DNA of 64,000 nt from Gammaproteobacteria bacterium (GCA_050306135.1 JBNLGQ010000029.1:128585-192584), one strand, 5' to 3'; shown: positions 7,852 to 54,025, numbered from the stretch's first letter. Made by a program: numbers and translations. Notes: generated by a model from the sequence alone, not told the origin.

Positions 7852-9099
7852 CTATAAACAACGCTGAATATCATCAGCGAGTACCTCAACCCAGTGTCTG
7901 ACAGGCACTTCACTGGCTGCTTGCAGATGATGTTCGCAGCCTACGTTAGCGGTAATGATGATATCTGGAGAATGTTTATTCAGTGCATTAATTTTATTAC
8001 GTTGTAGTTGTTGTGAAATCTCTGGCTGAAGCAGTGAGTAAGTACCCGCTGAGCCACAACAAAGATGAGCATTTTGCGGGATATCCAGTTGATAGCCGAG
8101 ATTACTCAGTTGCTGGAAAAGAATATCTGCCTGCTTATGACCATGGGTCAGGGTGCAGGGTGCATGGTAGGCAATACGCTGGTTTGATGCGCTAAAATTG
8201 TTGACGTTTTGTTGTAATGTTGCAGCATCTAATAACTCGCTGATATCCACAATCTTATCGCATAGCGAATGATACTCCGTCTGTCTTTCTACCAGCTTCA
8301 TTTGACTCAGAATATGCGGGTAATCTTTCAACATAATACCGCAACCACTGGCGGTAGAAACTACAGCGTCTAATGTCTGTTGTGCATTTATAGTGGACCA
8401 GCTTGCGAGATTCGCAAGCACCCATTGTTCAGCCTTTTCAGGCTGGCTCAAATGTTGATTGACTGCACCACAGCAACTGCTCTGGCTTTCACGTATCACT
8501 TTATAGCCGAGGCTTTGTAACAGCAATACAGCAGCAGAGTTCGTATTTGGGCTGATGCTACTCTGTACACAGCCTTCCAGTAATAATACTGTTTTGACCG
8601 CTTTAACCGGGCTTTGATTAAAGCTTTTTGCCAGACGATTGTGGGGTACTTTTTTGGCAAGGCTTGCAGGCAACAGTGGACGAAATAAAGCCCCCATTTT
8701 GAATAACCATCTATGTCGAGATGGATAGGGCAGGATATCCCCCAGCAGTTGGCGTATCAGTTTTTGACTGGTAGAACGTAGACCCTGTTTTTCCATATGA
8801 GCTCTACCTATGTCAATTAATTCGGCATAATTGACGCCGGAAGGGCAGGTAGTTTCGCAGGAGCGACAGGTCAGACAACGGTCCAGATGCATCTGTGTTT
8901 CACGGTCTGCTGGTTGACCTTCGAGCATCTGTTTGATTTGATAGATTCTTCCACGTGGCCCATCCAGCTCATTGCCTAACAGCTGGTAGGTTGGGCAGGT
9001 CGCGGTGCAGAAACCGCAATGCACACATTTACGCAGGATTTCGTCGGCGCGGTTACCAGCCGTGGTATTAAGCAGTTGAGGGATAATACTGGTTTGCAT
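7852..9099 (-). CDS. glcF: Glycolate oxidase iron-sulfur subunit
   Basis: CVHCGFCTATCPTY and CLTCRSCETTC 4Fe-4S motifs, two CCG domains, cotranscribed with glcDE. Confidence 0.93.
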   Translation of the reverse strand: MQTSIIPQLLNTTAGNRADEILRKCVHCGFCTATCPTYQLLGNELDGPRGRIYQIKQMLEGQPADRETQMHLDRCLTCRSCETTCPSGVNYAELIDIGRAHMEKQGLRSTSQKLIRQLLGDILPYPSRHRWLFKMGALFRPLLPASLAKKVPHNRLAKSFNQSPVKAVKTVLLLEGCVQSSISPNTNSAAVLLLQSLGYKVIRESQSSCCGAVNQHLSQPEKAEQWVLANLASWSTINAQQTLDAVVSTASGCGIMLKDYPHILSQMKLVERQTEYHSLCDKIVDISELLDAATLQQNVNNFSASNQRIAYHAPCTLTHGHKQADILFQQLSNLGYQLDIPQNAHLCCGSAGTYSLLQPEISQQLQRNKINALNKHSPDIIITANVGCEHHLQAASEVPVRHWVEVLADDIQRCL

Positions 9100-9125
9100 A
9101 TTACTGCCTTCTTATCTTCATCTGC

Positions 9126-10193
9126 TTAATCACTAAACTGACTGAGTTTTGGGTTGAACAGCTTATGAGGGTCAAAAGCACGTTTGATTTTCTGATGCAT
9201 CTTGATTTGCAAGCTATCCATCAAGGTTGCTGGTTGGGTGGGTGCTGTACCTCTATGTGCCTCTATATAGCCGCCAATATTACGAATATGCATGAAGTCA
9301 CTTTGTGTTATCGTGTCGCTGTGTAGCCAGCGTAAACCGCCACACCAGTCAATAAAACAGGAGTGATTATTTTCCAGTTCGAGCGGCATTGTGCTTGCCG
9401 GTAAAATAATGCGCCAGAGTGATTTTGCATCGGTAAAGAATGGGTGCGTTTGCTGCTGTATGCTGTCCCAGAACTGCTGATCGTCTGGCATGGCTTCGCC
9501 GCCCATTTTCTGTTCGGCATGTCGTACTCCTGACTCGGTACCCTGTAGTCGAATGATCAATTGTTGCTGGTAATAACAGGCTGCTGTTATCGGTAAAGCC
9601 TGTCCAGCCATTTGATTCATGCTGTGAATGGCTGTTGCTTCATCCTGTTCAAAAGTTAGTGTAATCTGGGTTTCTGGTTGGGGTAGCACCTTAAGTGTAA
9701 TATCTAATATTGGTCCCAGAGTGCCTCGGGAGCCACACAGCAGACGTGATATGTCGTAACCAGCGACATTTTTCATCACCTGTCCGCCGCCACTTAACTG
9801 TTGTGCTAGTCCATTAATGATACTGACACCCAGTACATGATCACGGATGGCGCCATGAAACGGCCGACCTGACCCGCTATGGCCTAGCGCGATGGCACCA
9901 CCAATCGTACAGGCTTCAGAATACATCGGGAAGTCAGTTGGAAGACGCTGTCTGTTCTGTTCTAACAGAGGTTTTAATTCATTGATGGCTGTACCACTAC
10001 GAACTTTTAAGGTGAGTTCTGTGGGCTGGTAATCGATCACTCCTGAATGCTCTCGCATATCTATGCAAAGCGATTCGCTAAACTCATCCAGCATAAATTG
10101 ATGGCTACCCGACCCATGAATGGAGAGCGCCTGCAGATTTCCAAGCGCCTGTTCAACCTGCTGCTGTATCTGTTGTGTATTGTCCTGGTCCAT
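9126..10193 (-). CDS. glcE: Glycolate oxidase FAD-binding subunit GlcE
   Basis: GGQVMKNVAGYD motif; C-terminal IKRAFDPHKLFNP; ATG at 10193 lies just after the glcD stop. Confidence 0.9.
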   Translation of the reverse strand: MDQDNTQQIQQQVEQALGNLQALSIHGSGSHQFMLDEFSESLCIDMREHSGVIDYQPTELTLKVRSGTAINELKPLLEQNRQRLPTDFPMYSEACTIGGAIALGHSGSGRPFHGAIRDHVLGVSIINGLAQQLSGGGQVMKNVAGYDISRLLCGSRGTLGPILDITLKVLPQPETQITLTFEQDEATAIHSMNQMAGQALPITAACYYQQQLIIRLQGTESGVRHAEQKMGGEAMPDDQQFWDSIQQQTHPFFTDAKSLWRIILPASTMPLELENNHSCFIDWCGGLRWLHSDTITQSDFMHIRNIGGYIEAHRGTAPTQPATLMDSLQIKMHQKIKRAFDPHKLFNPKLSQFSD

Positions 10194-10198
10194 AGTCT

Positions 10199-11695
10199 TC
10201 AAAAGCGAGGGATATCTGGATGGGCCAGTTGACCTTTGTGTACATGCATGGCACCCAGTTCGGCACAGCGGTGCAGGCTGGGTATCGCCTTGCCCGGGTT
10301 AAGAATGCCCTGTGGGTCGAGTTGCGATTTGATACGGTGAAACTGAATCAGTTCGGGTGAGGTAAACTGATGACACATATGATCAATCTTTTCGATACCT
10401 ACGCCATGCTCTCCGGTAATTGTACCGCCTTTATCCACGCACAGTCTGAGAATATCACCACCCAACGCTTCAGCTTTATCCAGATCGCCGGGCTTGTTTG
10501 CATCATACAGAATCAGCGGATGCAGATTGCCATCACCTGCATGAAAGACATTAGCTACCGGCAGATTGTATTGAGTGGAAAATTCGGCAATAGACTTGAG
10601 TACATCGGGTAATGCCTTGCGAGGAATGGTACCGTCCATGCAGTAATAATCCGGTGAGATACGTCCTACTGCAGGGAAGGCAGCCTTGCGCCCAGCCCAG
10701 AATAATGCGCGTTGCATATCGTTTTGTGACAGGCGAATATCGTGCGCAGAACACTGTTGCAGGATTTGATTGACTTCGCCCATCTGTTGTTCAATCTCTG
10801 CCAGTGTGCCATCCAGTTCGCATAGCAGCAGAGCTTGGCATATCGGATAATCGGCATGAATAAAATCTTCTGCCGCCTGTATGGCGAGTCGATCCATCAT
10901 TTCCAGACCTGCTGGAATGATACCGGCGCTGATAATATCGCGTACAGCGGCACCGGCATTACTGACATCGTTGAAAGCAGCGAGTACTACCTGTGCGGCC
11001 TGCGGTTTAGGTACCAGACGGACAGTGACTTCCATAATGACGCCGAGCAGGCCTTCAGAGCCATGCATAAGCGCCAGTAAATCGTAACCGGGGCTATCCA
11101 TGCATTGCTGTCCACCGATTTCTAATAGCTCGCCTTCGCTGTTTAGCATTTTTATGCCCATCACATTATTTACGGTCAGGCCATATTTCAGGCTGTGAAC
11201 ACCTCCAGAGTTTTCTGCCACATTGCCGCCAATGGAACAGGCAATTTGTGAGGAGGGGTCTGGTGCGTAATACAGGCCATATTGAGTCGCGGCTTCGGTG
11301 ATGGCAAGGTTTCGTACACCTGGCTCAACCACTGCCAGACGTTGCAGTGGGTCTATACTTTTGATGCGGTTGAACTTGCTCAAGCTCATAACGATGGCCT
11401 GTTCAACGGGTAATACGCCCCCGGCCAGGCCGGTACCTGCACCTCTGGCGATAAGTGGGATGGCATGTTTATGACAATAGCGAACAATTTGCTGACACTG
11501 TTCGATAGTTTCCGGTAGCACTACCATTTTGGGTACCTTGCGGTAAGCCGACAGACCATCACATTCAAAAGGGATTAGCTGAGCTTGGTGATACAGCAGG
11601 CTGTCAACTGGAAGTATGGAACCCAGGTCCGATACGACCTGATGAACCTCCCAGTCTTTAAATTCAAATTCGCCACTTTGAGGGTCAAATGCCAT
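10199..11695 (-). CDS. glcD: Glycolate oxidase subunit GlcD
   Basis: YYAPDPSSQIACSIGGNVAENSGG, FHAGDGNLHP and GEHGVGIEK motifs. Confidence 0.95.
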   Translation of the reverse strand: MAFDPQSGEFEFKDWEVHQVVSDLGSILPVDSLLYHQAQLIPFECDGLSAYRKVPKMVVLPETIEQCQQIVRYCHKHAIPLIARGAGTGLAGGVLPVEQAIVMSLSKFNRIKSIDPLQRLAVVEPGVRNLAITEAATQYGLYYAPDPSSQIACSIGGNVAENSGGVHSLKYGLTVNNVMGIKMLNSEGELLEIGGQQCMDSPGYDLLALMHGSEGLLGVIMEVTVRLVPKPQAAQVVLAAFNDVSNAGAAVRDIISAGIIPAGLEMMDRLAIQAAEDFIHADYPICQALLLCELDGTLAEIEQQMGEVNQILQQCSAHDIRLSQNDMQRALFWAGRKAAFPAVGRISPDYYCMDGTIPRKALPDVLKSIAEFSTQYNLPVANVFHAGDGNLHPLILYDANKPGDLDKAEALGGDILRLCVDKGGTITGEHGVGIEKIDHMCHQFTSPELIQFHRIKSQLDPQGILNPGKAIPSLHRCAELGAMHVHKGQLAHPDIPRF

Positions 11696-18990: not shown

Positions 18991-21792
18991 TTAATTTAAG
19001 GGGCTCGACTGAGCAATAACGAGTAGCTTTTTAATTTCTTTGAGCAGTTGCTCGTGAGTCTGGCTAAAGCCAATGGCGTCTTCCTCTGCCAGTGAATATT
19101 TCTGTTGCTGGTAATTGTTTAACATTCGCTCGGCGATATTGTGGATTTGAGTATGTAATAGCTGAATAGTTTTAAACTCAGCGTAATGATTATACATCCT
19201 GTCACCGTCGGTTATTAACCAGAGGCCAAAGCGGCATTTAGTATGATCCAGCTCTGGAAGTTGTGACTGTTTGCCGTTGATATAGTTCAGAGTATTGGAT
19301 ACCCAGTAACGGTGTTCTACCATCGCGAGCAATAGCTGAGGGTCACTGTTATGTATATTCTGGATGTTTTTCCAGCTAGATGGAGAAGACCAGCTGTGAC
19401 TCCAGTCAGGTATATCTTCTGCTGGCATGGGGCGGGCGATTGCATAGCCCTGAGCTAAATCACAGCCGACCATTAATAACATTTCTGCATGCTCCATGGT
19501 TTCAATACCTTCTGCAACTACATCGCGCCTGAAAGCTCGGGCGAGGCCTATGACCCCTTCGACAATAGCGAGGTCTTCTGGGTCTTCCAGCATATCGCGC
19601 ACAAAGCTACGGTCAATCTTGATAACATTGGCTGGCAGATGTTTCAGATAGGTCAGGGATGAATAGCCGGTGCCAAAGTCATCCAGGGCAAAATCTACAC
19701 CCATTTGAAGGCATTTATGCATAGTTTTTGCGACATGGACGATATCAAGAGTACTGGTTTCAAGTACTTCAATCTGCAGGCGATTAATATTAGATCTATC
19801 ATGTCTATCAAGTAACTGCTTGAGTCTTTGCACGAAGTCATCCTTTTGAATATGGTAGGCACCTATATTTATACTTACAGAAATATCCAGTCCCTGTTCA
19901 CGCCAACTCTGTAACTGATATAAGGCGTTGCTGATCACCCACTCGCCAAGGGTGACCGATAGTTGATGTTGCTCTATCAATGGCAGGAAAAATCCGGGGT
20001 CCAGCATACCCTGTTCAGGGTGATCCCAACGAATCAGGGCTTCGACACCGATGATTTTACCTGTGCGTAGATTTACCTTGGGCTGGTAGTAAAGTTTAAA
20101 TTCGTTATTTTCCAGACCCATTCGGATGCGTTCCAGTTTTTCATGTTGTCCGCGCAGATTCTGATCTTCTTCAGGGTCAAATTGATAATATTTGTTTTTA
20201 CCTTCTAGTTTGGCCCTGTACATTGCCTGATCGGCCTGTCTGAGTAGCTGATCAGCGTCAATGTCTTCCTTCTGAGGAAAACTGGTGACGCCGATACTGG
20301 CGGTTACCTGAACCTGAATATCACCTAGCTTCACGGGTTGAGCAGCGGCCAGCAGCAGCCGTTCTACTGACCTTTTACTTTCAATTTTGTCGCTGTCTAT
20401 CAAGATGGCGATAAATTCATCTCCGCCCAGGCGAGCTATGGTATCGCTTTCACGCAGGCAGTCTGACATACGCTGGGAAATGGTAATAAGTAATTGATCT
20501 CCAAGGTCATGACCGAGTGAATCATTCACCTGCTTAAAGCCATCAAGGTCGAGATAGGCAACAGTAACTGCCTGCTTTCTACGATGAGCCTGTGCGATGG
20601 CCTGTTTAAGGCGATCTGCCAGCAGCATGCGGTTTGGTAATCCGGTTAAGGAGTCATAGTGCGCAATCTGTTCCAGTTGTTTTTGATGCTCAATCTGAGA
20701 AGTGATATCAGAAAACAAAGCCACGAAGTGCTGAATTTCTTCGTTTGTATCCTTTACAGCACTAATGGTTAGCAGTTCGACCACTGTTTCACCATTCTTT
20801 CTTCGGTTCCAGATTTGTCCGGTCCAGTGCCCATGATGGTTAAGGTTTTTCCACATGTTGAGATAAAAATTCTTTGTATGTTTACCCGATTGCATAAAAC
20901 GTGGGTTTTTTCCAACCACTTCATCCCGGCTGTATCCCGTGATTGTGGTAAAGGCTTCATTAACATCAATGATATTGGCTTTAATATCTGTTATGACGAT
21001 ACCTTCTCTGGCGTGGGTAAAAACACTGGCTGCAAGCTTCATCTGATTTTCAGCAATCAGCCGCTGTTCATTTTCCCAGGCAAGCTGGATATTGGCCTGT
21101 TTCTGTTTCTGTTGTTCATTACTGATTTCCTGAGTCATATGATTAAAGCATTCAGCCAGCTGACTCAGCTCATCTTTAGAGGTTACCGGTGCTCTTATAT
21201 TCAGATTTCCTTTACTGGCCAGGTTTGCAGCACGCATCAGGTTTTTGATTGGTCGAAGTACGCTGATGTGGAAAATGATAAAAATAATTGTGGCTAGAAA
21301 GATGATGATGGCCAGATCGATGATGAGTAGATTAAGCAGGTTCTCATTGTTCAGGTTAAGCAGGCGGCTACGGTCAACAGCAATAATCAATTCGCCCAGT
21401 AAGTCAGCACCATCTTTAATAGGAAATTTGTAGATGTCGAGATGACGAAAATCCTTATTGCTCTCTATCAGTTTCTCTATTTGCTGTAATGACAATCCAT
21501 TAGGGGACGCTGTGGTCATCGCTATTCCATCTTTATTTCTTATCATCGCGAAATTGATATCTACATCACTGGCTATTCGTTCGACATATTGATCCAGGGT
21601 AGTGATATCAAAAGAGTAAATGGGTTTAGGGCTGATCAGTGTAATAAAGTTACCCAATGAGTTAGCTTTATCATTCAACCCTTCAATAAGAAGTTTCTGC
21701 TGTGACTGGTACAGGTACAGGGCTGTTGAAAGCAATGTAATCACCAGCACAATAGAGATTGCTGAAACGAACTTAAAACGTAATCCATGCAT
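18991..21792 (-). CDS. Membrane c-di-GMP enzyme: TM-HAMP-PAS-GGDEF-EAL-CZB
   Basis: Two TMs, HAMP, PAS (GKNPRFMQSG), intact RLGGDEF with RESD I-site, EALIRW/DDFGTGYSS, C-terminal H..HTKCRFG.W..H..H zinc domain; ATG 21792 preferred over TTG 21813. Confidence 0.88.
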   Translation of the reverse strand: MHGLRFKFVSAISIVLVITLLSTALYLYQSQQKLLIEGLNDKANSLGNFITLISPKPIYSFDITTLDQYVERIASDVDINFAMIRNKDGIAMTTASPNGLSLQQIEKLIESNKDFRHLDIYKFPIKDGADLLGELIIAVDRSRLLNLNNENLLNLLIIDLAIIIFLATIIFIIFHISVLRPIKNLMRAANLASKGNLNIRAPVTSKDELSQLAECFNHMTQEISNEQQKQKQANIQLAWENEQRLIAENQMKLAASVFTHAREGIVITDIKANIIDVNEAFTTITGYSRDEVVGKNPRFMQSGKHTKNFYLNMWKNLNHHGHWTGQIWNRRKNGETVVELLTISAVKDTNEEIQHFVALFSDITSQIEHQKQLEQIAHYDSLTGLPNRMLLADRLKQAIAQAHRRKQAVTVAYLDLDGFKQVNDSLGHDLGDQLLITISQRMSDCLRESDTIARLGGDEFIAILIDSDKIESKRSVERLLLAAAQPVKLGDIQVQVTASIGVTSFPQKEDIDADQLLRQADQAMYRAKLEGKNKYYQFDPEEDQNLRGQHEKLERIRMGLENNEFKLYYQPKVNLRTGKIIGVEALIRWDHPEQGMLDPGFFLPLIEQHQLSVTLGEWVISNALYQLQSWREQGLDISVSINIGAYHIQKDDFVQRLKQLLDRHDRSNINRLQIEVLETSTLDIVHVAKTMHKCLQMGVDFALDDFGTGYSSLTYLKHLPANVIKIDRSFVRDMLEDPEDLAIVEGVIGLARAFRRDVVAEGIETMEHAEMLLMVGCDLAQGYAIARPMPAEDIPDWSHSWSSPSSWKNIQNIHNSDPQLLLAMVEHRYWVSNTLNYINGKQSQLPELDHTKCRFGLWLITDGDRMYNHYAEFKTIQLLHTQIHNIAERMLNNYQQQKYSLAEEDAIGFSQTHEQLLKEIKKLLVIAQSSPLN

Positions 21793-24188: not shown

Positions 24189-25219
24189 TAGTGATCTTCC
24201 GGAGGCTTAACGCCGAAAACACGGGGCTGAGTGTAATAATCGATAAGAGGAACTGTCATATTGGCTAATAGAACGGCAAAGGCGACACCATCGGGATAGC
24301 CTCCCCAACTGCGAATGATGTAAACCAGAACCCCAATCATAAAGCCATAAATCAGACGCCCTTTTTTAGTGGTTGAAGCTGTTACCGGATCAGTGGCAAT
24401 AAAGAAAGCCCCCAGCATGATCCCTCCTGAGAACAGGTGAAAGCCCGGTGAGGCGACACTATCAGGATTGACCACATAAAACAGGGTAGCAATCAGTAGT
24501 AAACCAAAAATCATTGCTACCGGAATATGCCAGCGGATCGTTTTGGTGAATAGGAGATAGATACCTCCGATAAACCACCAGTTGGCTATCCATTCCCAGC
24601 CTACGCCTGCAAAATCGCCGAATACGGGTGATTGTTTGATTTCGCTAACCATCATATTCAGGCCCAGATTAGTCTTGAACTGATCCAGTGGAGTAGCTGA
24701 TGTTAATGCATCCCATTGTTGCATGTCGACCAGACCCAGAGTGTAACTAAAAGCCTGTGCCAGATTGAGAGAATCACCACTAATCTGTATCGGCAGAAAC
24801 CAGTTGGTCATGTCCTTGGGGAAGGAAATCAATAGCACTACATAACCCACCATGGCCGGGTTAAAAGGATTAAAGCCTAATCCCCCATACAGGTGTTTGC
24901 CGGCTATCATGGCAAACCCTATACCTACCGCTATTAACCACCAGGGGCTATGCATAGGGATACACAGGGCCAATAACCAGGCGGTGACCACTGCGCTGTA
25001 ATCTGAAAGGTAAGGTTTAAGCGGACGTTTACGTAGCAGCAGGATTATCGTTTCAAATAACAATGCAAACCCGATAGCGAATACCAGGTTAACAATAAGT
25101 CCAACGCCAAAATACCAGATATACGCCACTGAGCCTGGAATCAGCGCAATGATCACATTCAACATCATGCGGTTGATGCGAGCAGATGGGGAAATGAATG
25201 GAGAAGATATCAGGCTCAT
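24188..25219 (-). CDS. rnfD: Rnf subunit D
   Basis: KHLYGGLGFNPFNPAM, DALTSATPL and FFIATDPVT motifs. Confidence 0.95.
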   Translation of the reverse strand: MSLISSPFISPSARINRMMLNVIIALIPGSVAYIWYFGVGLIVNLVFAIGFALLFETIILLLRKRPLKPYLSDYSAVVTAWLLALCIPMHSPWWLIAVGIGFAMIAGKHLYGGLGFNPFNPAMVGYVVLLISFPKDMTNWFLPIQISGDSLNLAQAFSYTLGLVDMQQWDALTSATPLDQFKTNLGLNMMVSEIKQSPVFGDFAGVGWEWIANWWFIGGIYLLFTKTIRWHIPVAMIFGLLLIATLFYVVNPDSVASPGFHLFSGGIMLGAFFIATDPVTASTTKKGRLIYGFMIGVLVYIIRSWGGYPDGVAFAVLLANMTVPLIDYYTQPRVFGVKPPEDH

Positions 25220-26880
25220 GGATTTTCCGGTTTGTTGCTGTTTCGACGAGCCTCGGCTTCATCAATCTGGCGTTGTTGAGCTGGCGTAAGATTCTCGATA
25301 TTTTTGGGTTTTACCGCCTGCTGGCTTTTGCGTGCTTTAACACGTTCCAGCGCAGCCTGTACCGCATCAGCAGTAGGCGAAGAGGTGGCTTCAGTATTTG
25401 CGGTTTCTGACTTAGCCTGTTGTTCGGTCTGTTTCTTCTTATCAAGCGCTTCACGCCTTTCACGTCGGCGCTCTTCATCCTGCATCTTTTGCTTGAGGAT
25501 GCGAGCTTCGCGAAATTCATGGCGTTTACGTGCACGATCAGACTGGTAGGTTTTCTTGCGTTGCTCCCAGATTTCACTCTTGGAGAATCGATAATATTGC
25601 ACCAGAGGGATATGGCTGGGACATACCGCTGAACAACATCCACATTCAATACAGTCGAATAAATGATATTGCTCAGATAATTCAAACTGTCTTGAACGGC
25701 TGTGCCAGTAAAGCTGCTGCGGAAGTAAATTCACCGGACACACTTCAGCACATTGACCACAGCGTACACATTCAGTCGCCTCGGGCTGGTCGAGTTTATC
25801 GAGCACAAGAATGGTGTTGGTGGCTTTTACTACCGGAATCTGGTCGCTATGCAAGGGCAGCCCCATCATTGGTCCACCCATAATCAGTAAGGGCTTATCC
25901 ACTTTATAGCCACCAGCGAGTTCTATCAGATGACTGATTGGAGTACCTATTGCGACATGCCAGTTACCAGGATTTTTGATGCCAGGCCCGGTCACTGTGA
26001 CAATACGCGAAGTGAGTCGCAGGTTCTCATCAATGGCATCTGCAATGGCAGCACAGGTACCCACATTTTGTGTTAGAAAGCCAATCTTGAAGGAGAGTTC
26101 ACCACTTAATACCTCGCGTCCGGTGAGTACCTTAATCAGCTGCCTTTCTCCCCCTGAAGGATAGAGTGTGGGAATAGATATAACCTGTGTATCAGCCAGC
26201 TCAAGCTCTTTCAATGCTTTACGCATGGCCTTAATAGCAGCGGGCTTGTTGTCTTCAATGCCAATCAAAGTTTGCTGGGGCTTGAGCAGGTTTTGTAAAA
26301 TCTGGATACCACGCATCACTTTGGGGGCATCGTGTTGCATCAGGATATCATCACAGGTGATATAGGGTTCGCATTCGGCGCCATTGATCACCAGAGTTTC
26401 TATCCGATGCTGTATCGCGGTTTCCAGTTTGGCGGCGGTAGGAAAGACCGCCCCCCCCAGACCCACAATGCCGCATTGTCGAATACGCTCCAGTATGTCT
26501 TGCGTACTGAGGTCAGAATTAACTGATTTACTACTGTTGATGTGGCTGTCGGTGCCATAGGGTTGAATAACAATACACAGGTCGGTTTGACCAGAAGGGT
26601 GTGCTATAGGTCGATCTTCAATTGCGGTGATGACACCTGAGGCTGGCGAATGGACCGGAGCACTGACAAACTCTATGGTTTCAGCCAATAACTGTCCTTT
26701 TTTGACGGACTGGCCAACCTTAACCAGAGGGCTGTTCGGTTCCCCAATGTGTTGACTGACGCGCACAATGATTTCATTCGGCAGGCTGGCAATTTGGATT
26801 TCACCACCCAGTGATTCCTTTTTGTGGTCCTCAAGATGTAGACCGCCATGAAACTTAAATGACCCTGGATTACCCGACAT
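25216..26880 (-). CDS. rnfC: Rnf subunit C
   Basis: Start at ATG 26880 ([13 protein letters not shown]); [24 protein letters not shown] and CIECGCC motifs; charged C-terminal tail. Confidence 0.94.
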
Positions 26881-27433
26881 GCTGCCCTCCTGCGGTGTCT
26901 GGTGCGGACCATTTCCAGTCTGCCAGGGTTCGCTTGACCGGAACCATGGCAATACAGTCGACCGGGCAGGGTGGCAGGCAGAGTTCACAGCCAGTACATT
27001 CATTGGCGATAATGGTGTGCATATGTTTTGCCGACCCCAGTATGGCATCTACAGGACAGGCCTGGATGCAGAGTGTACAACCGATGCAGGTTTGTTCGTC
27101 GATATGAGCTACGGTAGGGACGTCTTTGTGTTCACCGTGTTCAGCGCTGAGTTCTAACACCTCAACATCCAGCAGGTCTGCCAGCATAACTATGGTGTTC
27201 TGACCACCGGGAGGGCATTGGTTGATTGGAGCTTCTCCATTAGCGATAGCTTCTGCGTAGGGGCGGCAGCCTGCAAAACCACACTGGCCGCACTGGGTTT
27301 GTGGCAGGATCGCATCGATTTGTTCAACAATAGGGTTGCCTTCAACCTTGAAACGAATAGCCGCGTAGCCAAGAATCAGGCCGAAGCTTCCGGCTATAAA
27401 ACTGAGAGTGAATACGGCAATAAGGACTAACAT
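26870..27433 (-). CDS. rnfB: Rnf subunit B
   Basis: [20 protein letters not shown] and two CxxCxxCxxxCP motifs. Confidence 0.95.
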
Positions 27434-46559: not shown

Positions 46560-47282
46560 CTAACTCAAGTTGAAGGATAAAGGGATTTCAAACTGCCACT
46601 GCAGACGATTTATTTTTTCAGGAAAGGGGAGTTTCCCTGAAACGGCCTGTATCGCCTTGATGACGGCTTTATCCAGAATCTTATGCCCTGTGGAATCGAT
46701 AACGCGAATCTGTTTGACGGTGCCATCACTCAATACAAGAAAACTTACAATTGCCCTGCCTTCTATATTACGGCGTTGTGCGCGCCGAGGGTAATCCTTG
46801 CTGGCATCGATTAACTTGCTCAGGGTTAGTCGATACTCATCTTCCAGCCTGGTAATTAGTCCGGGATCATGCATCATCTTCTCGGGTTCTGCTTCCAATG
46901 CAGCTACCGGCTGTGGAGGCGGTGCTGCCTGCACAATCTCTGGTTGCGGCTCGACCTCTGGTTTCGGTGGTTCTATTTTTTTCTCTACTACAGGCTTTCT
47001 CATCGGCCTGGGTTTAGGCTTTACGATGGGTTTGGTTTTCTTTTTTACTACGGGTTTCGGCTTGACCGGTTTGGGAGGAGGAGTTACCGGTTTTGGTGGC
47101 TCAGGAATAATGGTCTTAACTGGTTCGGGAACTGTTTTGAACATCGCCAGTTTTAATGGGGTAGTTGTTTGTTTATTGCTGGCAGAAGTGAATTTTCCTG
47201 AAAAATAGGGGATAGCGACCGCTGCATGTATGAGTGCAGAAAAAAAGATGGCTATCAACTCGAAATGGAAATTTCTGGGCAT
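46560..47282 (-). CDS. tonB: TonB energy transducer
   Basis: N-terminal TM, Pro/Lys-rich linker, YPRRAQRRNIEG C-terminal domain. Confidence 0.9.
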   Translation of the reverse strand: MPRNFHFELIAIFFSALIHAAVAIPYFSGKFTSASNKQTTTPLKLAMFKTVPEPVKTIIPEPPKPVTPPPKPVKPKPVVKKKTKPIVKPKPRPMRKPVVEKKIEPPKPEVEPQPEIVQAAPPPQPVAALEAEPEKMMHDPGLITRLEDEYRLTLSKLIDASKDYPRRAQRRNIEGRAIVSFLVLSDGTVKQIRVIDSTGHKILDKAVIKAIQAVSGKLPFPEKINRLQWQFEIPLSFNLS

Positions 47283-47284
47283 TG

Positions 47285-47659
47285 TTATTGCTGTTTGGTA
47301 ATAATCGATAGCTTTTCGAGTTGATTGCCTTTGAGTAAATCAATCACCTGGATAAAGTATTCAAAAGCTACCTTTTTATCTACGCGCAATACGATAGGCG
47401 TATCGTTCGATAAATCCTTAAGCCGGTCGCCTAATTCCTGCTGGGTGATTTTCTCTTCGTCGTAATAAAACTGATTTTGATCATCAATCGCAATTTCTCG
47501 TGTCTGTTCAGCTTTTAGCGGTTGACTGCTACTGGCTTCGGGTATGTTGATATCGATCTTGCCCTGAGCGATGAAGGTTGCTGTCATCAATACGATAGCC
47601 AGCAATACCAGCATGATGTCGATAAATGGAATAACATTGATCTGATCAAAGCGTTTCAT
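47285..47659 (-). CDS. exbD: ExbD
   Basis: INVIPFIDIMLVLL motif; ATG 47659 overlaps the exbB stop. Confidence 0.92.
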   Translation of the reverse strand: MKRFDQINVIPFIDIMLVLLAIVLMTATFIAQGKIDINIPEASSSQPLKAEQTREIAIDDQNQFYYDEEKITQQELGDRLKDLSNDTPIVLRVDKKVAFEYFIQVIDLLKGNQLEKLSIITKQQ

Positions 47660-48084
47660 TGATCCTGTGCCTGTTTCCATTGTGAAGTCAGTACATCAAC
47701 CTTACGCAACAGCGTGTTGTAGAACAGTATGGAGGGAATGGCGACTACAAGCCCCGCTGCAGTCGCTTTAAGTGCCAGAGCCAGTCCAAGCATGATGGCA
47801 GAGGGGTCTATGTTTCCTCCGCCCTTGCCTATATCCCAGAAAGTAATCAATATGCCAAATACCGTTCCCAATAAGCCGATATAGGGTGCGTTGGAACCAA
47901 TGGTTGAAATAGCGGTGAGTCTATGGGTCAGGGAAACCTGAAGTTGCTCAGGATGGGTGTAAGCATCCACCTTGAAGCGGGCGTAAAAGATAAAGCGTTC
48001 AATGACGAACCAGATCATCAGAAAACTCATCAGACCGAGAATGCCGAAAACCATAAAATCCAGATATTGCTTTAAAAATTCCAT
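47656..48084 (-). CDS. exbB: ExbB (short form)
   Basis: TIGSNAPYIGLLGTVFGI and ALKATAAGLVVAIP motifs; 142 aa. Confidence 0.92.
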   Translation of the reverse strand: MEFLKQYLDFMVFGILGLMSFLMIWFVIERFIFYARFKVDAYTHPEQLQVSLTHRLTAISTIGSNAPYIGLLGTVFGILITFWDIGKGGGNIDPSAIMLGLALALKATAAGLVVAIPSILFYNTLLRKVDVLTSQWKQAQDQ

Positions 48085-48086
48085 AA

Positions 48087-48731
48087 TTAAAATGCCATAG
48101 CAATGCGATAACTACCGATAGCAACCAGTACACTGCTACCGAACCAGACCAATCCCTGTTTCAGCCAGGGGCTGCGACTACGTAGTTCCTGCCCCAACTT
48201 GCCGAGTAAAGGCAGGATAATAAAAAGCGGGGTAATCGCTGCACCAAGGCCAAATACAAATCCGTAGGACATTCCCAGGGTGAAGCTTCCGGCTGCAGCA
48301 CAGGCAGCTAACAGGGCGGCAAGTGGCGCACAGGGAATAAAGCTAAGAGAAAAACCCATCATGAAAGGATGCATATTGTGTCGCTTACTGATCGCGCAAC
48401 CACGGTGCTGCTTACCCATGTTGTAAATTAACCAGATACCTGCCACTACACTGCTGACTCCGATTAATACATTGCCAATACCGCTACGCAGGTAATGCAG
48501 CAGAAATTCACCAGTAATACCTGCGAATGCACCTAGTGTTGCATAGGCTGTCACTTTTCCAGCAGCAAATAATCCGGCATCAATCATGCTGCCTTTCATA
48601 CCCAGATTGCGGCTCATTACCCAGCTGCCCATAAAGGGCAGGCAGGATGCTGTGCAGGCGGTAAAGCCTACGGTGATGCCGAGAATCCACACCGAAAATA
48701 GTCCGACCTGTTGCAGTACGATATTGTCCAT
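48087..48731 (-). CDS. CcdA/DsbD_2 (TauE/UreH-like) membrane protein
   Basis: Six hydrophobic segments with the Cys motifs ACTASCLP and FIPCAPL. Confidence 0.7.
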   Translation of the reverse strand: MDNIVLQQVGLFSVWILGITVGFTACTASCLPFMGSWVMSRNLGMKGSMIDAGLFAAGKVTAYATLGAFAGITGEFLLHYLRSGIGNVLIGVSSVVAGIWLIYNMGKQHRGCAISKRHNMHPFMMGFSLSFIPCAPLAALLAACAAAGSFTLGMSYGFVFGLGAAITPLFIILPLLGKLGQELRSRSPWLKQGLVWFGSSVLVAIGSYRIAMAF

Positions 48732-49786
48732 CAGACTGGCTCCACGGTAACGGGGCGAGGTTTAGCTTTTTTTGTAGGCTTTATACCTTCAGGCTTTTCC
48801 TGCTTGATACGTTTCTTGTAGTACTCTCTGTTAGAGCTAAATAATGCTATCGGGCCAAACTTGACTTGAATGACACCGTCATCAGGACAGAATTCAGCAC
48901 AGCGTCCGCATAAAGTGCAGTCATCGTGAAAGGCTTTGCTGCCTGATTGTTTCCAGATTTCCTGAATATCCATCGGGCAGGCCTTTGTACAGACGCCACA
49001 TTTTTCGCATTTCTCATGTTCTTTCTTTACCAGTCGTGTGGGCGATAGTTTCTGGAACAGAGCATTGAATGCGAGTAAGGGACAGATTCTACAAAATGGC
49101 TGACGCATGGTCATCGATAACACAACAATCGTGCCGAATAACAATGCACGTATAGATGAAAAAATGATATCAGCGATACCTGCGGTGTTAATGGTTAACT
49201 GTTCAAAGTTACCACTAGCTAATGTGGTAAGAACACGAGATGGACAGACCTGACAAAAGGCATCACCGGCAGCGTGCGGTGCTACGCCAAGTCCAGCGAC
49301 CAGGGGCAGGATAAAAACCAGTATGGCCAGCATTAACCATTTTATTGGACGTACATATCGCAGCTGATTTTGCGCAAGGCTGTGGTTTTTCTGTAGCCCA
49401 AAGAAGTGTGACATCTTGTACATCATTTCCTGAAAGGTACCCAGCGGGCAGATCCAGCCGCAGAACATCTTATTCAGAAAAACAAAAAATACATAAAATG
49501 ACAGAAAGGTGAACAGTAGAGGAATGACGACCTTGTAACTGAATTGCTGTATCTGTACTAATGCTTCTCCAACACGATGGTGCAATTGATGCTGGGTAGG
49601 TATCAGTACGCAATAACCTCCATTTAACTGATCGTAGGCACAGGAAAGAGCAGGCAGAGATCCTGAGATTTTTTCTGCAGAATAGTGACCTACAAGAAGG
49701 CCGCCATATACCAGAAAAAGAAAGGATAGAATTTGTACGACAAATCGTACACGGCCAAGAGTAGGTGCGCTTATGGATGAGCTCAT
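48731..49786 (-). CDS. Membrane 4Fe-4S protein (NapH/CcoG/NosR-like)
   Basis: FCGWICPLG, FCRICP, CEKCGVCTKACP and CTLCGRCAEFCP motifs. Confidence 0.85.
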   Translation of the reverse strand: MSSSISAPTLGRVRFVVQILSFLFLVYGGLLVGHYSAEKISGSLPALSCAYDQLNGGYCVLIPTQHQLHHRVGEALVQIQQFSYKVVIPLLFTFLSFYVFFVFLNKMFCGWICPLGTFQEMMYKMSHFFGLQKNHSLAQNQLRYVRPIKWLMLAILVFILPLVAGLGVAPHAAGDAFCQVCPSRVLTTLASGNFEQLTINTAGIADIIFSSIRALLFGTIVVLSMTMRQPFCRICPLLAFNALFQKLSPTRLVKKEHEKCEKCGVCTKACPMDIQEIWKQSGSKAFHDDCTLCGRCAEFCPDDGVIQVKFGPIALFSSNREYYKKRIKQEKPEGIKPTKKAKPRPVTVEPV

Positions 49787-50598
49787 GCTGACCTCCTTTT
49801 GAACAAAAAGATGCCGGTTATCAGGCTACCGCTAAAAGCCAGACCAATGGCCGGTAATACGGATTTATTGGTGAAAGCATCTTCGCCATATTTGTAATTA
49901 AAGGCTGACGTTTTATTATCATGCTCAACACTGAGGGCAAATTGGGCGGATTTTCTACCATGGCTTGCATGGCCCATGTCATGGCCTTTATGCTTTTCTG
50001 CGAAGGCTGCAAAATCATCTGGAAAACGGACAGAGACTATGCCATTAGCATCGCTGGTCATAGTGATGGTTGTGTCGTTACTGGTCTCTAGAATAACGGT
50101 AGCATCGGCCAGAGGTTTTCCCTGTGATAGCACGATAAAATCCCAGTTTTCATTGGCTCTAAATCGTTGGTGTTCGCGCGGTAGATTTACGGGCTTGATT
50201 TCCAGTGGCAGTTTGCTTTGCTTTAGCATCTGTCTTGGCGCCGGACCGGGGCTAGAAAAATAATGAACTGTACTTGCAAAGTGTAATCCTTCGCTATCAG
50301 CAGCAGTTAACCAGTGGTAATTACCCTGGTTTTTACCGCCGATTTTCATGCTAAAGCTGCCATCACCGGTTGCATTTAATTCATTCGCAATAGACTCGCC
50401 TTCTGATGCAGGAAAATCCTGCATCAAAACATTGCTCATATTGTGAGGGCGAAAAGCAGACTGAGCACGACGATCAGCACCCTTTATTCTCTCCGGGATA
50501 AGTATCGGAGCTGAGGTCCAGTTGACACTCGCCTGTAGCGGGATAGCCAGTGATGCAAGTACAGCCCAGACAGGAGCCAAATAAATCAGTCTTTTCAT
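49783..50598 (-). CDS. Periplasmic DUF4198-like protein with His-rich loop and C-terminal membrane anchor
   Basis: Signal peptide; LEIKP..F.V...GKPLADA.V..T.SDANG.V pattern; HKGHDMGHASH; terminal TM followed by KRR. Confidence 0.6.
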   Translation of the reverse strand: MKRLIYLAPVWAVLASLAIPLQASVNWTSAPILIPERIKGADRRAQSAFRPHNMSNVLMQDFPASEGESIANELNATGDGSFSMKIGGKNQGNYHWLTAADSEGLHFASTVHYFSSPGPAPRQMLKQSKLPLEIKPVNLPREHQRFRANENWDFIVLSQGKPLADATVILETSNDTTITMTSDANGIVSVRFPDDFAAFAEKHKGHDMGHASHGRKSAQFALSVEHDNKTSAFNYKYGEDAFTNKSVLPAIGLAFSGSLITGIFLFKRRSA

Positions 50599-52754
50599 GA
50601 TTTAGCTCCAAAGCTATAGGTGTAATTGAACAGGATGGATCGTGGTGCACCGGCCTGGTAGGATTTGTCACCTGAGGTGTCTTTGCTCACTTCTAATGCA
50701 TAGCGTTCGTCGGTCAGATTGCTCACGGTTAAATCGAACTTGTGCTGTTTCATGGCATAGCGCAGGTTAAAATCAGCAATCATTTTATTGTCCGTCCATT
50801 TTTCACTGTTGGCATTATCCATATAGTATTCACCATCTTTGCGTAGCTTAATCTGTGAAGAAAACCCTTCTGTGAATTGATATTCAACGAACATATTGGT
50901 TTGTTGACGGGGTATTAACGGTAGATAGTTTCCGCTACGATCCACATTGGAAACATTACGTCCAACTCTAACTTCTTCCTGGAAGTCATCATATTTATAG
51001 CTGGTGAAGTTTAACCCGGCGCCAAAAGTTAATTGTGCAGTAGCTGCATACTGACCTGAAAATTCCAGTCCCTGTTTACTGGTCTGACCGGCATTAACAT
51101 ATTGGCTTTCTCCATCAGGCTGACGAATTTGAATAACTTCATCCTTTCCAGTAATGTCATAAATGGAGGTATCGAAAGACCATCTTCCACTGCGGCCCTT
51201 TAAACCGATCTCGATATTTGTATTGCTGGATTTGTTTAGATCAGGGTTGCTATTGAGTTCGCTGTCTGCAGGTATTTGATCGGCTGTGGCAAGTGAAATA
51301 AAGGTATTAATCTCTTTAGTTAGTTCATAACTTACACCTACACTGGCTGAGCCAAGGGTTAGGTCGTGGGTGTTATGGGTCTCGCCAGCGCCGGTATCAT
51401 AATTACCTGTGCTGTAGTTGTAGGCGATGATCTCATTTTCATCAATAGTGAGTTTGACGTCATCCACGCGAGCTGTTAAATCCATACTGACTCGGTCAGT
51501 CAGGTTCAGGTGTTCTGAAGCGAAAAGACCCAGCAGTGTTCCTTTGGTGCTGCTTATTTGTGCCAGCTCGCCTTTATCATCTGAAAGTGTAGAAACGATA
51601 CGACCTGAAGGGATGGTTTGAACATCGGCATAGGTATACTTTTCAGCATCCTTGGTAGTATTAACCCGATAAGCAATACCAAAAACCGTATTGGCATCTC
51701 GTCCGCCTATCTGGTGTTCATTCTGAACGGCAATCTCTGCGCCCAGCATGTTGGGTGGATTACCGGAGTTGTCATTGATGAATCCGGTAACAGGGTGGTA
51801 ATGGTGATACTGGCTGTAATACAGCTTGGGTTCCAGCATATAATCACCCATCTCGATTTCTGCCTTGGTGTTAAAGAAAACATTCTCGGAATAGCGACCG
51901 GTATGTTTGAAGATGCTATCTACGTCATTCTGTTCACCCGTACGCTTGTATTCTTCCCACATGGCTTCGTCCATTCCGCCTGATAATTCCATATCAATTT
52001 TTGCAAAACCGAGCTCGGTTTCCAGCACATTATCTTCACCAAACTCAAGACCATGTTTAATGCTCAGGTGATCACTGGACTGTTCATTACGTTTGCGCCA
52101 GCTGTTCTTTAATTCACGATGACTAAAGGTGACTGACATAGCCTGGTTTTCGTTGATGTCTCCCCCCGTTCTTAAGTGCAGGTCACTACCATCATCATCG
52201 TTGATACCAATCTTTATGCGGCCTTTATCCTGATCGAAAACAGATTTTGTGATGATATGAATGGTGCCGCCTGCAGAGCCCGAAGCATACATATTGCCGG
52301 GACCACGGGTGACTTCTAAACGTTCAATGTCCTGACCATCGATAGTGTCCAGGCGGGTAAAGCTATCGGGCTCTGTAAGAGGGATGCCATCGCGTAGTAC
52401 CATAATTTCTCGTATGCCATATCTTGCTTTCAGTCCTGCACCACGAATAATCAGCTTGGCACTACTTAAACCATTTTTTGAGTAGGTAACAACACCGGGA
52501 ATATCCTGTAATGCATCACTGATGGAGTTCATCTTCAGCTGGTCGAGTTTTTCTTCACCCATACTGGAAATAGCCGAAGGCACCGACTTGCTTTCACGCT
52601 CGGATCTTGTTGCGGTAATGGTTACTTCATCAAGTACATCTCCTCCAGCGGTTTCAGCATAACTGGGCAAAGGAATGAGTGAAGACAAAAAAAGAAAATA
52701 TGCAGAGGTGAGGTAATGCCCTGATTTCCGATTGATACAGAATGGATCTTTCAT
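50595..52754 (-). CDS. TonB-dependent receptor
   Basis: TonB box DEVTITATR, plug motifs IRGAG and IERLEVTRGP...GSAGGTI, C-terminal NLTDERY...GAPRS. Confidence 0.93.
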   Translation of the reverse strand: MKDPFCINRKSGHYLTSAYFLFLSSLIPLPSYAETAGGDVLDEVTITATRSERESKSVPSAISSMGEEKLDQLKMNSISDALQDIPGVVTYSKNGLSSAKLIIRGAGLKARYGIREIMVLRDGIPLTEPDSFTRLDTIDGQDIERLEVTRGPGNMYASGSAGGTIHIITKSVFDQDKGRIKIGINDDDGSDLHLRTGGDINENQAMSVTFSHRELKNSWRKRNEQSSDHLSIKHGLEFGEDNVLETELGFAKIDMELSGGMDEAMWEEYKRTGEQNDVDSIFKHTGRYSENVFFNTKAEIEMGDYMLEPKLYYSQYHHYHPVTGFINDNSGNPPNMLGAEIAVQNEHQIGGRDANTVFGIAYRVNTTKDAEKYTYADVQTIPSGRIVSTLSDDKGELAQISSTKGTLLGLFASEHLNLTDRVSMDLTARVDDVKLTIDENEIIAYNYSTGNYDTGAGETHNTHDLTLGSASVGVSYELTKEINTFISLATADQIPADSELNSNPDLNKSSNTNIEIGLKGRSGRWSFDTSIYDITGKDEVIQIRQPDGESQYVNAGQTSKQGLEFSGQYAATAQLTFGAGLNFTSYKYDDFQEEVRVGRNVSNVDRSGNYLPLIPRQQTNMFVEYQFTEGFSSQIKLRKDGEYYMDNANSEKWTDNKMIADFNLRYAMKQHKFDLTVSNLTDERYALEVSKDTSGDKSYQAGAPRSILFNYTYSFGAKS

Positions 52755-52827
52755 TTGGTACAGCCCTATAGTTTGTAATGATTATTAAATGATGGGCGAA
52801 TAGTAAATTGGAAGAATAATTCTGAAA

Positions 52828-52857
52828 GAGGCAAATTGTCGCGCGACAATATGTCAC
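52828..52857. promoter_or_regulatory. Two abutting RegA/RegR-type boxes
   Basis: GAGGCAAATTGTCGC + GCGACAATATGTCAC, together forming the perfect palindrome ATTGTCGCGCGACAAT at 52835-52850. Confidence 0.5.
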
Positions 52858-53116
52858 AGGGGAATAACTGTATTACTGATACGAAAAACACGTAATGATG
52901 TAGAGGGGGCTAGCGTATTTTCAGAGATCGGTTAACTGATCAGGGTGAGGTAGGTAATAAATAGAAATTGCATGTTCAACTCTATTTAGAGTTCTCAGAT
53001 AGGGGATCTGTACCCCCGACTTTAGGCGATGGATGCTTGGGAGGGGGCGTGTGATATTCTAAATAAATGGAAAATACTAATACCTGGGGCTACAGGTTCA
53101 GGCTTCAAAAAAATAG

Positions 53117-54025
53117 TTATTTTACCCCCTCTCCATATATCAGGGGCTTGCGCATCAGATACCAGGCGTCTGAGTAGGGAACGGTTCCATTATCTCGAAT
53201 GATTTGCTTGCCTTTTTTTGAGGATGCGAATTTTACGAATTCTTTAACCTTGTTATTTGATTTTGCACCGGTAACCAGATAAAGAGGGCGATAAAAAACA
53301 TAATTACCCGACTTAACATTTTCATAGGTAGGCACATAATTATCGATACCGATGATTTTCACATCACGTTTTCTGGCACTACTGACTCCTGTAATGGCGA
53401 TGGCATCAGGGTCTACTTCAACCGCTTTTTCGATGGGACCGGATGATTTCTTGATATATTCTTTCCTGGTCACAAAGTCAAAATCGCCAGCCTTAAAAAT
53501 ATACTGTCGAATGGCATACCCCACACCGGAAATTTTACCCTTTCGAATATAAAGATGGATGGGTTTATCTAAACCGCCAAGCTGCTTCCAGTTGGTGATT
53601 TCTCCACTATAAACCTTACTAATCTCTTCTGAAGTAATATTACTTACTGGATTATCTTTGTGCAGAATAACAGCTAATGCATCCCAGGCTACTGGATGAA
53701 GTGTTACATAGCTTTCAATACTATCAGACAGGGGCAGGGTCATTCTACAGGTACCGCCCATCATGACTAATCCCTTAGCGGTATCTCTTATACCTCTAGT
53801 TGCACCGCCACCTTCTATGTGAATTTTAATCCCGGTCTCGTTTTCAAAACCCTGAGCAAGTTCTTTCATAAAAGACTTTTGAGTGATGCCGCAACCAGCC
53901 CATGTAAGCACGGAGTCGTCGATTTCAGTGAGGGCTAGTACCTGTCTGGGCTGCAATAGCAAGATTGCAGTAATCAGAGCGATTGATTTCAAAATGACGA
54001 AGTGGGCAGGTTTTTTAGTAGCCAT
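53117..54025 (-). CDS. PstS-like periplasmic binding protein (orphan)
   Basis: Signal peptide; GGGATRGI, VAWDALAVILHKDNPV, ITNWKQLGG and RPLYLV motifs. Confidence 0.8.
   Translation of the reverse strand: MATKKPAHFVILKSIALITAILLLQPRQVLALTEIDDSVLTWAGCGITQKSFMKELAQGFENETGIKIHIEGGGATRGIRDTAKGLVMMGGTCRMTLPLSDSIESYVTLHPVAWDALAVILHKDNPVSNITSEEISKVYSGEITNWKQLGGLDKPIHLYIRKGKISGVGYAIRQYIFKAGDFDFVTRKEYIKKSSGPIEKAVEVDPDAIAITGVSSARKRDVKIIGIDNYVPTYENVKSGNYVFYRPLYLVTGAKSNNKVKEFVKFASSKKGKQIIRDNGTVPYSDAWYLMRKPLIYGEGVK

Follow-up and report, generated by a model that had tools for sequence, protein, structure and literature searches.

How bacteria take up nutrient copper is still poorly known, and the CrtA/CrpH system was described only in 2022-2026. 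The known system closest to the one considered here is cruR-crtA-crpH of Bordetella pertussis (PMC9426467, PMC12914433, PMC13038864). Its crtA and crpH genes encode a copper receptor and a putative periplasmic copper reductase serving heme-copper oxidases (PMC12914433, PMC13038864), and CruR has been established by experiment as a leader peptide that senses copper and stands at the head of copper homeostasis operons (PMC9426467). The locus described here lies in a stretch of 64,000 nucleotides (nt) from a gammaproteobacterium (GCA_050306135.1 JBNLGQ010000029.1:128585-192584), referred to below as the window. Positions 46560-52754 of its minus strand hold seven packed open reading frames (ORFs) encoding a TonB-dependent receptor, a DUF4198-like protein, a membrane polyferredoxin, a DsbD_2 protein, ExbB, ExbD and TonB. 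The operon is real, conserved and apparently undescribed: literature searches turned up no paper on it, in agreement with the original prediction, made from the sequence of the window. Our analysis suggests that it is dedicated to TonB-dependent acquisition of copper, including a reduction step in the periplasm, and to this complete model we assign a probability of about 0.55. That the genes form a receptor-linked metal system is highly probable, and, given such a system, copper is likely to be its metal.

Evidence that the genes belong together comes from their conservation. A scan of one genome per species yielded 65 orthologous loci (with adjacency counted by tblastn), which span beta- and gammaproteobacteria and Campylobacterota. 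The carriers are Thiobacillus, Sulfuricella, Gallionella, Sideroxydans and Ferrigenium, Dechloromonas, Azonexus, Azospira and Methylotenera, and also Sedimenticola, Thiodiazotropha, the Solemya symbiont, Neptuniibacter, Amphritea and Sulfurimonas. The inner trio, that is, the DUF4198-like, polyferredoxin and DsbD_2 genes, is contiguous in approximately 60 of the 65 loci: the DUF4198-like gene adjoins the polyferredoxin gene in 64, and the DsbD_2 gene adjoins in 59. The receptor gene is directly upstream in 44 of the 52 loci having enough upstream sequence; half of these receptors (22) represent the clade of the window's receptor, being 41-47% identical, and the others form a second clade with lengths of 750-830 amino acids (aa). 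ExbB or TonB is encoded downstream in 34 of 56 loci. Gene calls in public assemblies show the identical seven-gene order in loci L001 (with the receptor 47% identical), L002, L204, L207 and L208. The recurrence of this order in 65 loci shows that the genes were not brought together by chance; the original prediction had named the loss of the inner genes from the receptor's side as evidence against itself, and these genes are in fact kept with the receptor. More than 1100 homologues of the polyferredoxin are found in the protein collection, typically approximately 60% identical and coming from beta- and gammaproteobacteria. Public annotations are generic ('4Fe-4S binding protein', 'NapH', 'CcdA', 'TauE/SafE', 'hypothetical').

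In the window, all seven ORFs overlap or are separated by at most 2 base pairs (bp), just as predicted, the successive junctions in gene order being a 4-bp overlap, another 4-bp overlap, a 1-bp overlap, a 2-bp gap, an ATGA overlap and a 2-bp gap. The last three genes encode an energising complex of the operon's own, as had also been proposed, and each product passes its curated equivalog cut-off from NCBIfam: the short-form ExbB (47656-48084, 142 aa) scores 199 bits with TIGR02805 (cut-off 135), ExbD (47285-47680, 131 aa as the longest ORF) scores 140 bits with TIGR02804 (cut-off 123), and TonB (46560-47282, 240 aa), having an N-terminal anchor, a Pro/Lys-rich spacer and a C-terminal domain, scores 69 bits with TIGR01352 (cut-off 27) and 65 bits with TonB_C of Pfam. 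The longest ExbD ORF overlaps ExbB by 25 bp; judging from the sequence, translation probably starts at the eighth codon (47659), where ATGA overlaps the ExbB stop codon. The seven genes constitute a unit of their own, since a terminator-like hairpin (53082-53097) precedes them and the gene downstream of the operon is convergent. This hairpin lies downstream of a gene for a PstS-like periplasmic binding protein (PBP_like_2; 53117-54025, minus strand; 140 bits with TIGR02136, below the cut-off), separating it from the operon. The PstS-like gene, which is located directly upstream, was considered as a member of the system and rejected: it is missing from all related loci and is followed by the hairpin, and hence is probably unrelated.

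The receptor (50595-52754, minus strand as are all genes of the operon, 719 aa) has the plug and barrel domains of TonB-dependent receptors, which are defined by an N-terminal plug and a 22-strand barrel (PF07715, 66.9 bits; PF00593, TonB_dep_Rec_b-barrel, 115 bits). The closest solved structures are PqqU and YncD (approximately 1e-22 in matches to the PDB). The 22 members of the window's receptor clade conserve the motif HxHPVTG (H318, H320), H347 and H671. The sole cysteine of the receptor is in the signal peptide, and the mature protein has none. By its sequence, the receptor appears to belong to an uncharacterised clade of TonB-dependent receptors.

The next gene (49783-50598) encodes a 271-aa protein that matches Pfam DUF4198 (PF10670) marginally, with 34.8 bits at a cut-off of 34, and several of its orthologues have no Pfam hit. 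The protein consists of a signal peptide, a 224-residue periplasmic part with ten His residues, a C-terminal membrane helix and a basic tail, KRRSA; the C-terminal anchor is present in all 41 aligned relatives. In its AlphaFold2 model, the predicted local distance difference test score (pLDDT) is 83, and the top eight Foldseek matches of the model are structures of Zcp (with zinc, cobalt and copper) with E-values from 1e-8 to 1e-7 and template modelling scores of 0.46-0.54, while IsDUF4198 (9gcb) ranks 22nd. The model thus predicts that the protein shares the two-domain beta-sandwich fold of Zcp and IsDUF4198. The anchored DUF4198-like protein of the original prediction is thus present. The proposed His-rich loop, HKGHDMGHASHG, is indeed present, but it is confined to the window's lineage and is not kept family-wide: the only near-invariant His residues in the alignment of the 41 relatives are H95 and H143 (within LPREH). 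An attempt to align the sequence to that of Zcp, whose metal site has three His residues, for mapping the ligands produced no match. The Gallionellaceae and Methylotenera versions carry Met/His-rich N-terminal segments, e.g. PPMDMSGAHDHAAMMRGMG, a composition typical of copper-binding proteins. Zcp is the first characterised DUF4198 protein, and it binds zinc, cobalt and copper (PMC12663993).

The membrane polyferredoxin (48731-49786, 351 aa) has two Fer4_5 stretches and a 2x[4Fe-4S] domain. Its top NCBIfam match is NapH/MauN (TIGR02163), with 68.7 bits, far under the cut-off of 213. The protein has four membrane helices, one CX3CP and two CX2CP motifs, and eight ferredoxin cysteines. By hydropathy and the positive-inside rule, the iron-sulfur (Fe-S) domain and the N-terminus are predicted to be cytoplasmic. 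Loops 34-85 and 161-206 would thus face the periplasm, and the cytoplasmic side would hold the CX3CP motif together with a CX2CP motif and the 2x[4Fe-4S] domain. Among 24 sequences that are 55-79% identical, C49, H66, H69 and H70 are invariant and C59 is near-invariant in the former loop, and C178xxC181P is invariant in the latter. The original prediction had labelled the protein CcoG-type; this label has to be withdrawn in favour of NapH/MauN-like. CcoG/FixG/RdxA was rejected as the identity of the protein, as there is no FixG_C hit, the protein ends at residue 351 and it has four helices rather than five, and CcoG is not among the 25 NCBIfam families listed for it.

The DsbD_2 (CcdA/UreH-like) membrane protein (48087-48731, 214 aa) scores 62 bits with DsbD_2 and 27.7 bits with DsbD_TM of Pfam. 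All 40 sequences compared keep the cysteines of its membrane-embedded motifs C26xxxC30LP and PC134xP (PC134AP in the window), namely C26, C30 and C134, and 33 of the 40 keep C112, consistent with the predicted cysteine-bearing DsbD_2-like protein. The protein has CcdA-type cysteines in the first (C30-L-P) and fourth (P-C134-x-P) membrane helices, that is, one conserved cysteine in each within P-C-x-x-P-like motifs, by which DsbD/CcdA proteins are recognised, and a third cysteine, C26. Public names for its homologues are generic (CcdA, UreH-domain, TauE/SafE).

A further gene pair, encoding a BNR/sialidase-like beta-propeller protein with CECC and CPHH motifs and a thioredoxin-like (AhpC/TSA) protein, accompanies receptors in L023 (12730-14480), L029 (11945-13788), L115 (5293-7090) and L206 (4814-6528). 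In L115, the pair is downstream of a receptor preceded by a RegA-type box (see below). The pair may act as a further accessory for copper or redox chemistry in the periplasm.

Part of the evidence on the substrate comes from genes neighbouring the module in related loci of several independent lineages. Genes for Csp1, the copper storage protein exported by the twin-arginine translocation (Tat) pathway, lie beside the module in nine loci (TIGR04401, 120 bits at a cut-off of 100; PDB 5fjd), and NosL-like genes in three. PCuAC genes are found in L045 and L038. In Sulfuricella sp. T08, the cluster begins with a DUF2946/CruR gene; CruR/DUF2946 ORFs are present in L001, L005 and L206, and CruR-like ORFs ending in RAPP directly precede the receptor gene in L001 and, twice, in L005. 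Among the 146 nearest neighbours of 45 loci, NosL is the sole metal-specific Pfam family. The original prediction had left the choice between copper, nickel, cobalt, an iron chelate and tungsten or molybdenum; its core, metal uptake with a redox step at the inner membrane, remains the best fit, and its list of substrates is narrowed to copper by the neighbouring genes and regulation. Copper is most likely the substrate, being the one best supported by the sequence data.

A Phenol_MetA_deg outer-membrane protein is encoded right after the CruR gene in L206 (1287-2285, plus strand) and adjoins the upstream box described below in L155 (876-2102, minus strand). It may be a further outer-membrane component of the same regulon.

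The region upstream of the operon contains a conserved box, CTGTGACATATTGTCGCGCGACAATTTGCCTCTT (52826-52859, minus strand), approximately 95 nt upstream of the receptor ATG codon. Its 34-nt consensus, CTGyGACAnnnTGTCGCGCGACAnnnTGyCACAT, is composed of overlapping inverted repeats GCGAC-N5-GTCGC. A weight-matrix scan places the box approximately 90-100 nt upstream of the receptor start codon in approximately 20 loci, and CGCGACAA occurs in 11 of 45 upstream regions at 0.6 expected. The window has a single exact box core. RegA and PrrA reportedly recognise inverted GCG repeats whose spacer varies in length (PMC4263372). The box is a candidate site for a response regulator of this type. In the literature, RegA-type sites are degenerate; we take their exact consensus to be GCGNC-N5-GNCGC.

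The genomic association of the box points in the same direction. Among 80 metagenome contigs with the exact box pattern, the box is upstream of receptor genes in 14 and directly beside a pair of histidine kinase and response regulator genes in approximately 12. The best matches of these kinases are ActS/PrrB/RegB (248-261 bits), and those of the regulators are ActR/PrrA/RegA (178-209 bits), both under the equivalog cut-offs. The RegB-like kinases carry the quinone motif GGxxNPF and a cysteine approximately 40 residues after the phospho-acceptor His; the former is a motif of RegB, and the latter is placed as expected for the redox cysteine of RegB (PMC8191878). Two related loci have such genes beside the module itself. 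The order in L045 is PCuAC, RegB-like, RegA-like, two boxes, receptor, DUF4198-like, polyferredoxin, DsbD_2 and Csp1. In L205, genes for the RegB-like kinase, cydP, cydA, cydB, cydX and the RegA-like regulator form one operon (1830-6843), divergent from the module (receptor, DUF4198-like, polyferredoxin and DsbD_2), and the box (6877-6910) lies within the 127-bp spacer. Hence, a respiratory redox sensor here shares its place with genes of a copper-free oxidase beside the module, a layout that fits a response to failing copper-dependent respiration. Based on the box, the operon in the window is probably driven by a RegB/RegA-type two-component system. Still, control varies between lineages, since no RegB or RegA genes are found in the 64-kb window and L207 lacks the box.

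Other explanations of the box were tried and rejected. A coding leader peptide (the CRATxCH frame) would be encoded by ORFs of 8-55 codons nearly everywhere, mostly lacking a start codon and having no signal peptide. The outer arms of a hypothetical RNA hairpin differ in a fixed, non-compensating way (TGCGACA vs. TGCCACA). The spacing in the box, GACA-N3-TGTC, differs from that in the CusR box, GACAA-N2-TTGTC, which led to the rejection of CusR/CopR, and a neighbouring regulator of the OmpR type (cluster c19) is generic.

The box also precedes genes of Sel1-repeat proteins in L033 (approximately 10381), L061 (approximately 11765) and L161 (approximately 1859), which may belong to the same regulon. 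Approximately half of the 80 box-bearing metagenome contigs (L084-L163; e.g. L100, L113, L119, L122, L124, L129) have neither a receptor nor RegB and RegA genes nearby. Many of these receptor-less contigs are marine and full of ORFs of 60-130 aa, and may be phage-like; the box there could be a chance match or an unrelated use of the sequence.

In the proposed model, the receptor, energised by its own ExbB-ExbD-TonB complex, would bring free or loosely chelated Cu(II) into the periplasm, where the tethered DUF4198-fold protein would capture it via His ligands or, in some lineages, via the Met/His-rich segments. The NapH-like polyferredoxin would pass electrons from its cytoplasmic Fe-S clusters to the Cys/His site of the periplasmic loops, reducing Cu(II) to Cu(I). 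The three-cysteine DsbD_2 protein would then either conduct Cu(I) inward or supply thiol reducing power to the periplasmic site; it could equally export reducing power. Cu(I) would be handed on to Csp1, NosL, PCuAC, heme-copper oxidases and nitrous oxide (N2O) reductase. The operon would be regulated by a RegB/RegA-type system through the box in the window, and by a CruR-type leader peptide in other lineages. A bolder and only tentative extension is that microaerophilic and denitrifying proteobacteria widely share an as yet unrecognised route for importing copper, with an Fe-S polyferredoxin reducing Cu(II) at the periplasmic face, a DsbD_2 Cu(I) permease and switching-on by RegB/RegA alongside the copper-free bd oxidase. 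If so, the DsbD_2 protein would be the long-sought inner-membrane Cu(I) permease, and the operon would govern how cbb3 oxidase and N2O reductase are loaded with copper in sulfidic habitats poor in this metal.

A number of observations weigh against this copper model. The receptor is neither CrtA nor OprC. Membership in the CrtA family is defined by the CrtA sequence cluster and the conserved site E337/Q356/H358/R395/W265/Y130; the match of the window's receptor to CrtA-Bp (9RVQ; 62 bits, E-value 3.8e-16) is restricted to residues 460-707 in the C-terminal part, PqqU and YncD score higher, and the assignment to CrtA was rejected, as it was for the second receptor types (in L023, and the second receptor of L029). 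OprC/NosA receptors are defined by a Cys-Met-His-Met copper site and a match to the NCBIfam copper-receptor model. The 22 receptors of the window's clade have no conserved cysteine and one conserved Met (M118, in the plug), the OprC structure is not among the receptor's matches in the PDB, and the OprC/NosA model is not among the ten NCBIfam families matched, so this assignment was also rejected. The DUF4198 proteins characterised to date prefer zinc or nickel (PMC12663993, PMC12537917). Copper-related neighbours are found in only approximately 17 of the 65 loci, nine of these being related Gallionellaceae-type loci. The window itself has no genes for a copper chaperone, CruR, RegB or RegA, and there is no CruR-type ORF within 52755-53116. 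The AlphaFold2 model of the polyferredoxin, with pLDDT 50, is too poor to judge whether the cysteines and His residues of the loops cluster. The box is a candidate for a degenerate type of site, and the relative lacking it, L207, is the closest one examined (79% identical). Finally, what the operon transports, which way the electrons flow, what each inner protein does and which regulator acts are all deduced from sequence comparison.

Among other metals, iron has to be considered in the first place. In reductive iron uptake, the receptor would import a ferric chelate, the polyferredoxin would reduce Fe(III), and the DsbD_2 protein would import Fe(II), in parallel to FoxB, FpvG and the PepSY_TM systems, which often occur with DUF4198 proteins. 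DUF4198 genes are iron-regulated in Caulobacter, Alteromonas and Avibacterium, many carriers of the module are iron oxidisers, and the top NCBIfam match of the receptor is a siderophore subfamily, under its cut-off; clusters of PepSY, DUF4198 and TonB receptor genes have also been linked to iron (bioRxiv 10.1101/2021.01.07.425746). Yet shuffled sequence yields 19-mer Fur-box matches as good as the best ones upstream of 46 receptors. Fur control was rejected on this ground, and a Fur-like TAATAATCATTACAA near the start codon in the window was dropped accordingly. Moreover, no Feo, Fur or siderophore genes are present among the 146 nearest neighbours, the metal-specific neighbours that were found are all copper proteins, and the regulatory heads are CruR and RegB/RegA, not Fur; all this makes iron quite improbable. 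Uptake of nickel, cobalt or zinc, suggested by DUF4198 proteins characterised elsewhere, is very improbable. It is favoured by IsDUF4198, which binds nickel with a dissociation constant of 18 nM and is encoded near NikR and TonB receptor genes (PMC12537917), by the zinc binding of Zcp (PMC12663993), and by the occasional annotation of DsbD_2 proteins as UreH-like, but a reductase would have no role for Ni(II) or Zn(II), and neither NikR, Zur, urease, hydrogenase nor Znu genes are found among the same neighbours. Rfam identifies no cobalamin (B12), NiCo or Moco riboswitches in the window or in seven related loci, and the predicted mature N-terminus of the DUF4198-like protein, SVNWTS, lacks the N-terminal His seen in 79% of DUF4198 proteins (PMC12537917).

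The remaining alternative retains copper and dispenses with its passage through the inner membrane. The polyferredoxin and the DsbD_2 protein might form a copper-linked transmembrane electron and thiol relay that keeps periplasmic copper sites and chaperone cysteines reduced, as do CcdA, ScsB and TlpA. Such a relay would agree with both CcdA-type cysteines of the DsbD_2 protein, with the periplasmic action of Csp1, NosL and PCuAC, and with the observation that CrpH appears to serve copper use and not its acquisition (PMC13038864). Thioredoxin-like genes accompany related receptors, but they occur in only six related loci and never adjoin the DsbD_2 gene, and, by Pfam, no thioredoxin-like acceptor is encoded in the window operon. 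The invariant C26 completes a trigonal set of three cysteines suited to Cu(I), and members of PF13386 are also named UreH-like metal permeases. We regard the relay as rather unlikely, and prefer the copper acquisition model.

Some other genes were observed in the window and in its closest relative. A 605-aa ORF at 435-2252 (plus strand) matches, with its first approximately 220 residues, aldehyde:ferredoxin oxidoreductase, a tungsten enzyme family (207 bits, far under the equivalog cut-off). Glycolate oxidase genes glcD and glcF (7852-11695, minus strand) and an Rnf/Rsx cluster (approximately 22-28 kb, minus strand, with RsxC at 25216-27048) look like ordinary gammaproteobacterial housekeeping context. 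In L207, the closest relative with a long contig (with the polyferredoxin 79% identical), the operon has divergent genes for flavocytochrome c sulfide dehydrogenase (4573-6666) next to it, and genes ccoN and ccoO of the cbb3 oxidase (19650-21050) are approximately 8 kb downstream of it.

The carriers of the module include sulfur and iron oxidisers, denitrifiers, wastewater Competibacter and Dechloromonas, and chemosynthetic symbionts (Solemya, Thiodiazotropha). Sulfide makes copper scarce in their habitats, and their N2O reductase and cbb3 oxidases need it. If the copper model is true, it provides a testable copper route to N2O reductase, bearing on N2O emissions, and ties redox sensing by RegB/RegA to metal acquisition. 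It would also suggest a function for the NapH-like polyferredoxins, a large family of high conservation (more than 1100 clusters at approximately 60% identity), as well as for a DsbD_2 subfamily and the membrane-anchored branch of DUF4198.

Since the defining features of the CrtA, OprC and CcoG families were tested and are absent, the operon is not a member of any of them. With the CcoA-CcoG-CcoI route, which supplies copper to the cbb3 oxidase in Rhodobacter, it shares a [4Fe-4S] membrane polyferredoxin linked, here putatively, to Cu(II) reduction and to the copper supply of oxidases. However, the window polyferredoxin has four helices and 351 aa with no periplasmic FixG_C domain, and CcoG is a cupric reductase acting in the cytoplasm, whereas the Cys/His loops of the window polyferredoxin are predicted to be periplasmic. 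The four helices, the CxxxCP and CxxCP motifs and the C-terminal 2x[4Fe-4S] domain resemble those of NapH, MauN and NosR, the last of which also serves a copper enzyme. Unlike these proteins, the window polyferredoxin has no NapG-, NosZ- or FMN (flavin mononucleotide)-binding partner, its genomic partner being the TonB receptor, and the invariant C, C, H and HH of the first periplasmic loop are specific to its family. OprC/NosA, linked to N2O reductase in Pseudomonas stutzeri, is likewise an outer-membrane TonB-dependent copper route, but the mature window receptor has no cysteine and lacks the conserved Cys/Met/His/Met site.

Clusters of PepSY_TM and DUF4198 (with or without DUF2271/ApbE) genes with a receptor similarly bring together a receptor, a DUF4198 protein and an inner-membrane electron-transfer protein, and have been read as systems of periplasmic metal reduction (bioRxiv 10.1101/2021.01.07.425746). 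The window operon differs in using Fe-S clusters and not heme, in having no flavinylation genes, in the membrane anchor of its DUF4198 protein, and in the proposed metal, which is not iron. The distinctions from cruR-crtA-crpH are that the receptor is outside the CrtA cluster, that the place of the di-heme PepSY_TM protein is taken by an Fe-S NapH-like polyferredoxin, and that a RegA-type box is found in the window in place of CruR. Two additional conserved partners, the anchored DUF4198-fold protein and the three-cysteine DsbD_2 protein, are also encoded here. At the same time, in both systems a copper-linked TonB-dependent receptor is encoded together with an inner-membrane redox protein proposed to reduce periplasmic copper for heme-copper oxidases, private ExbBD/TonB and PCuAC or Sco genes occur in some loci, and a CruR/DUF2946 leader heads some relatives of the window operon.

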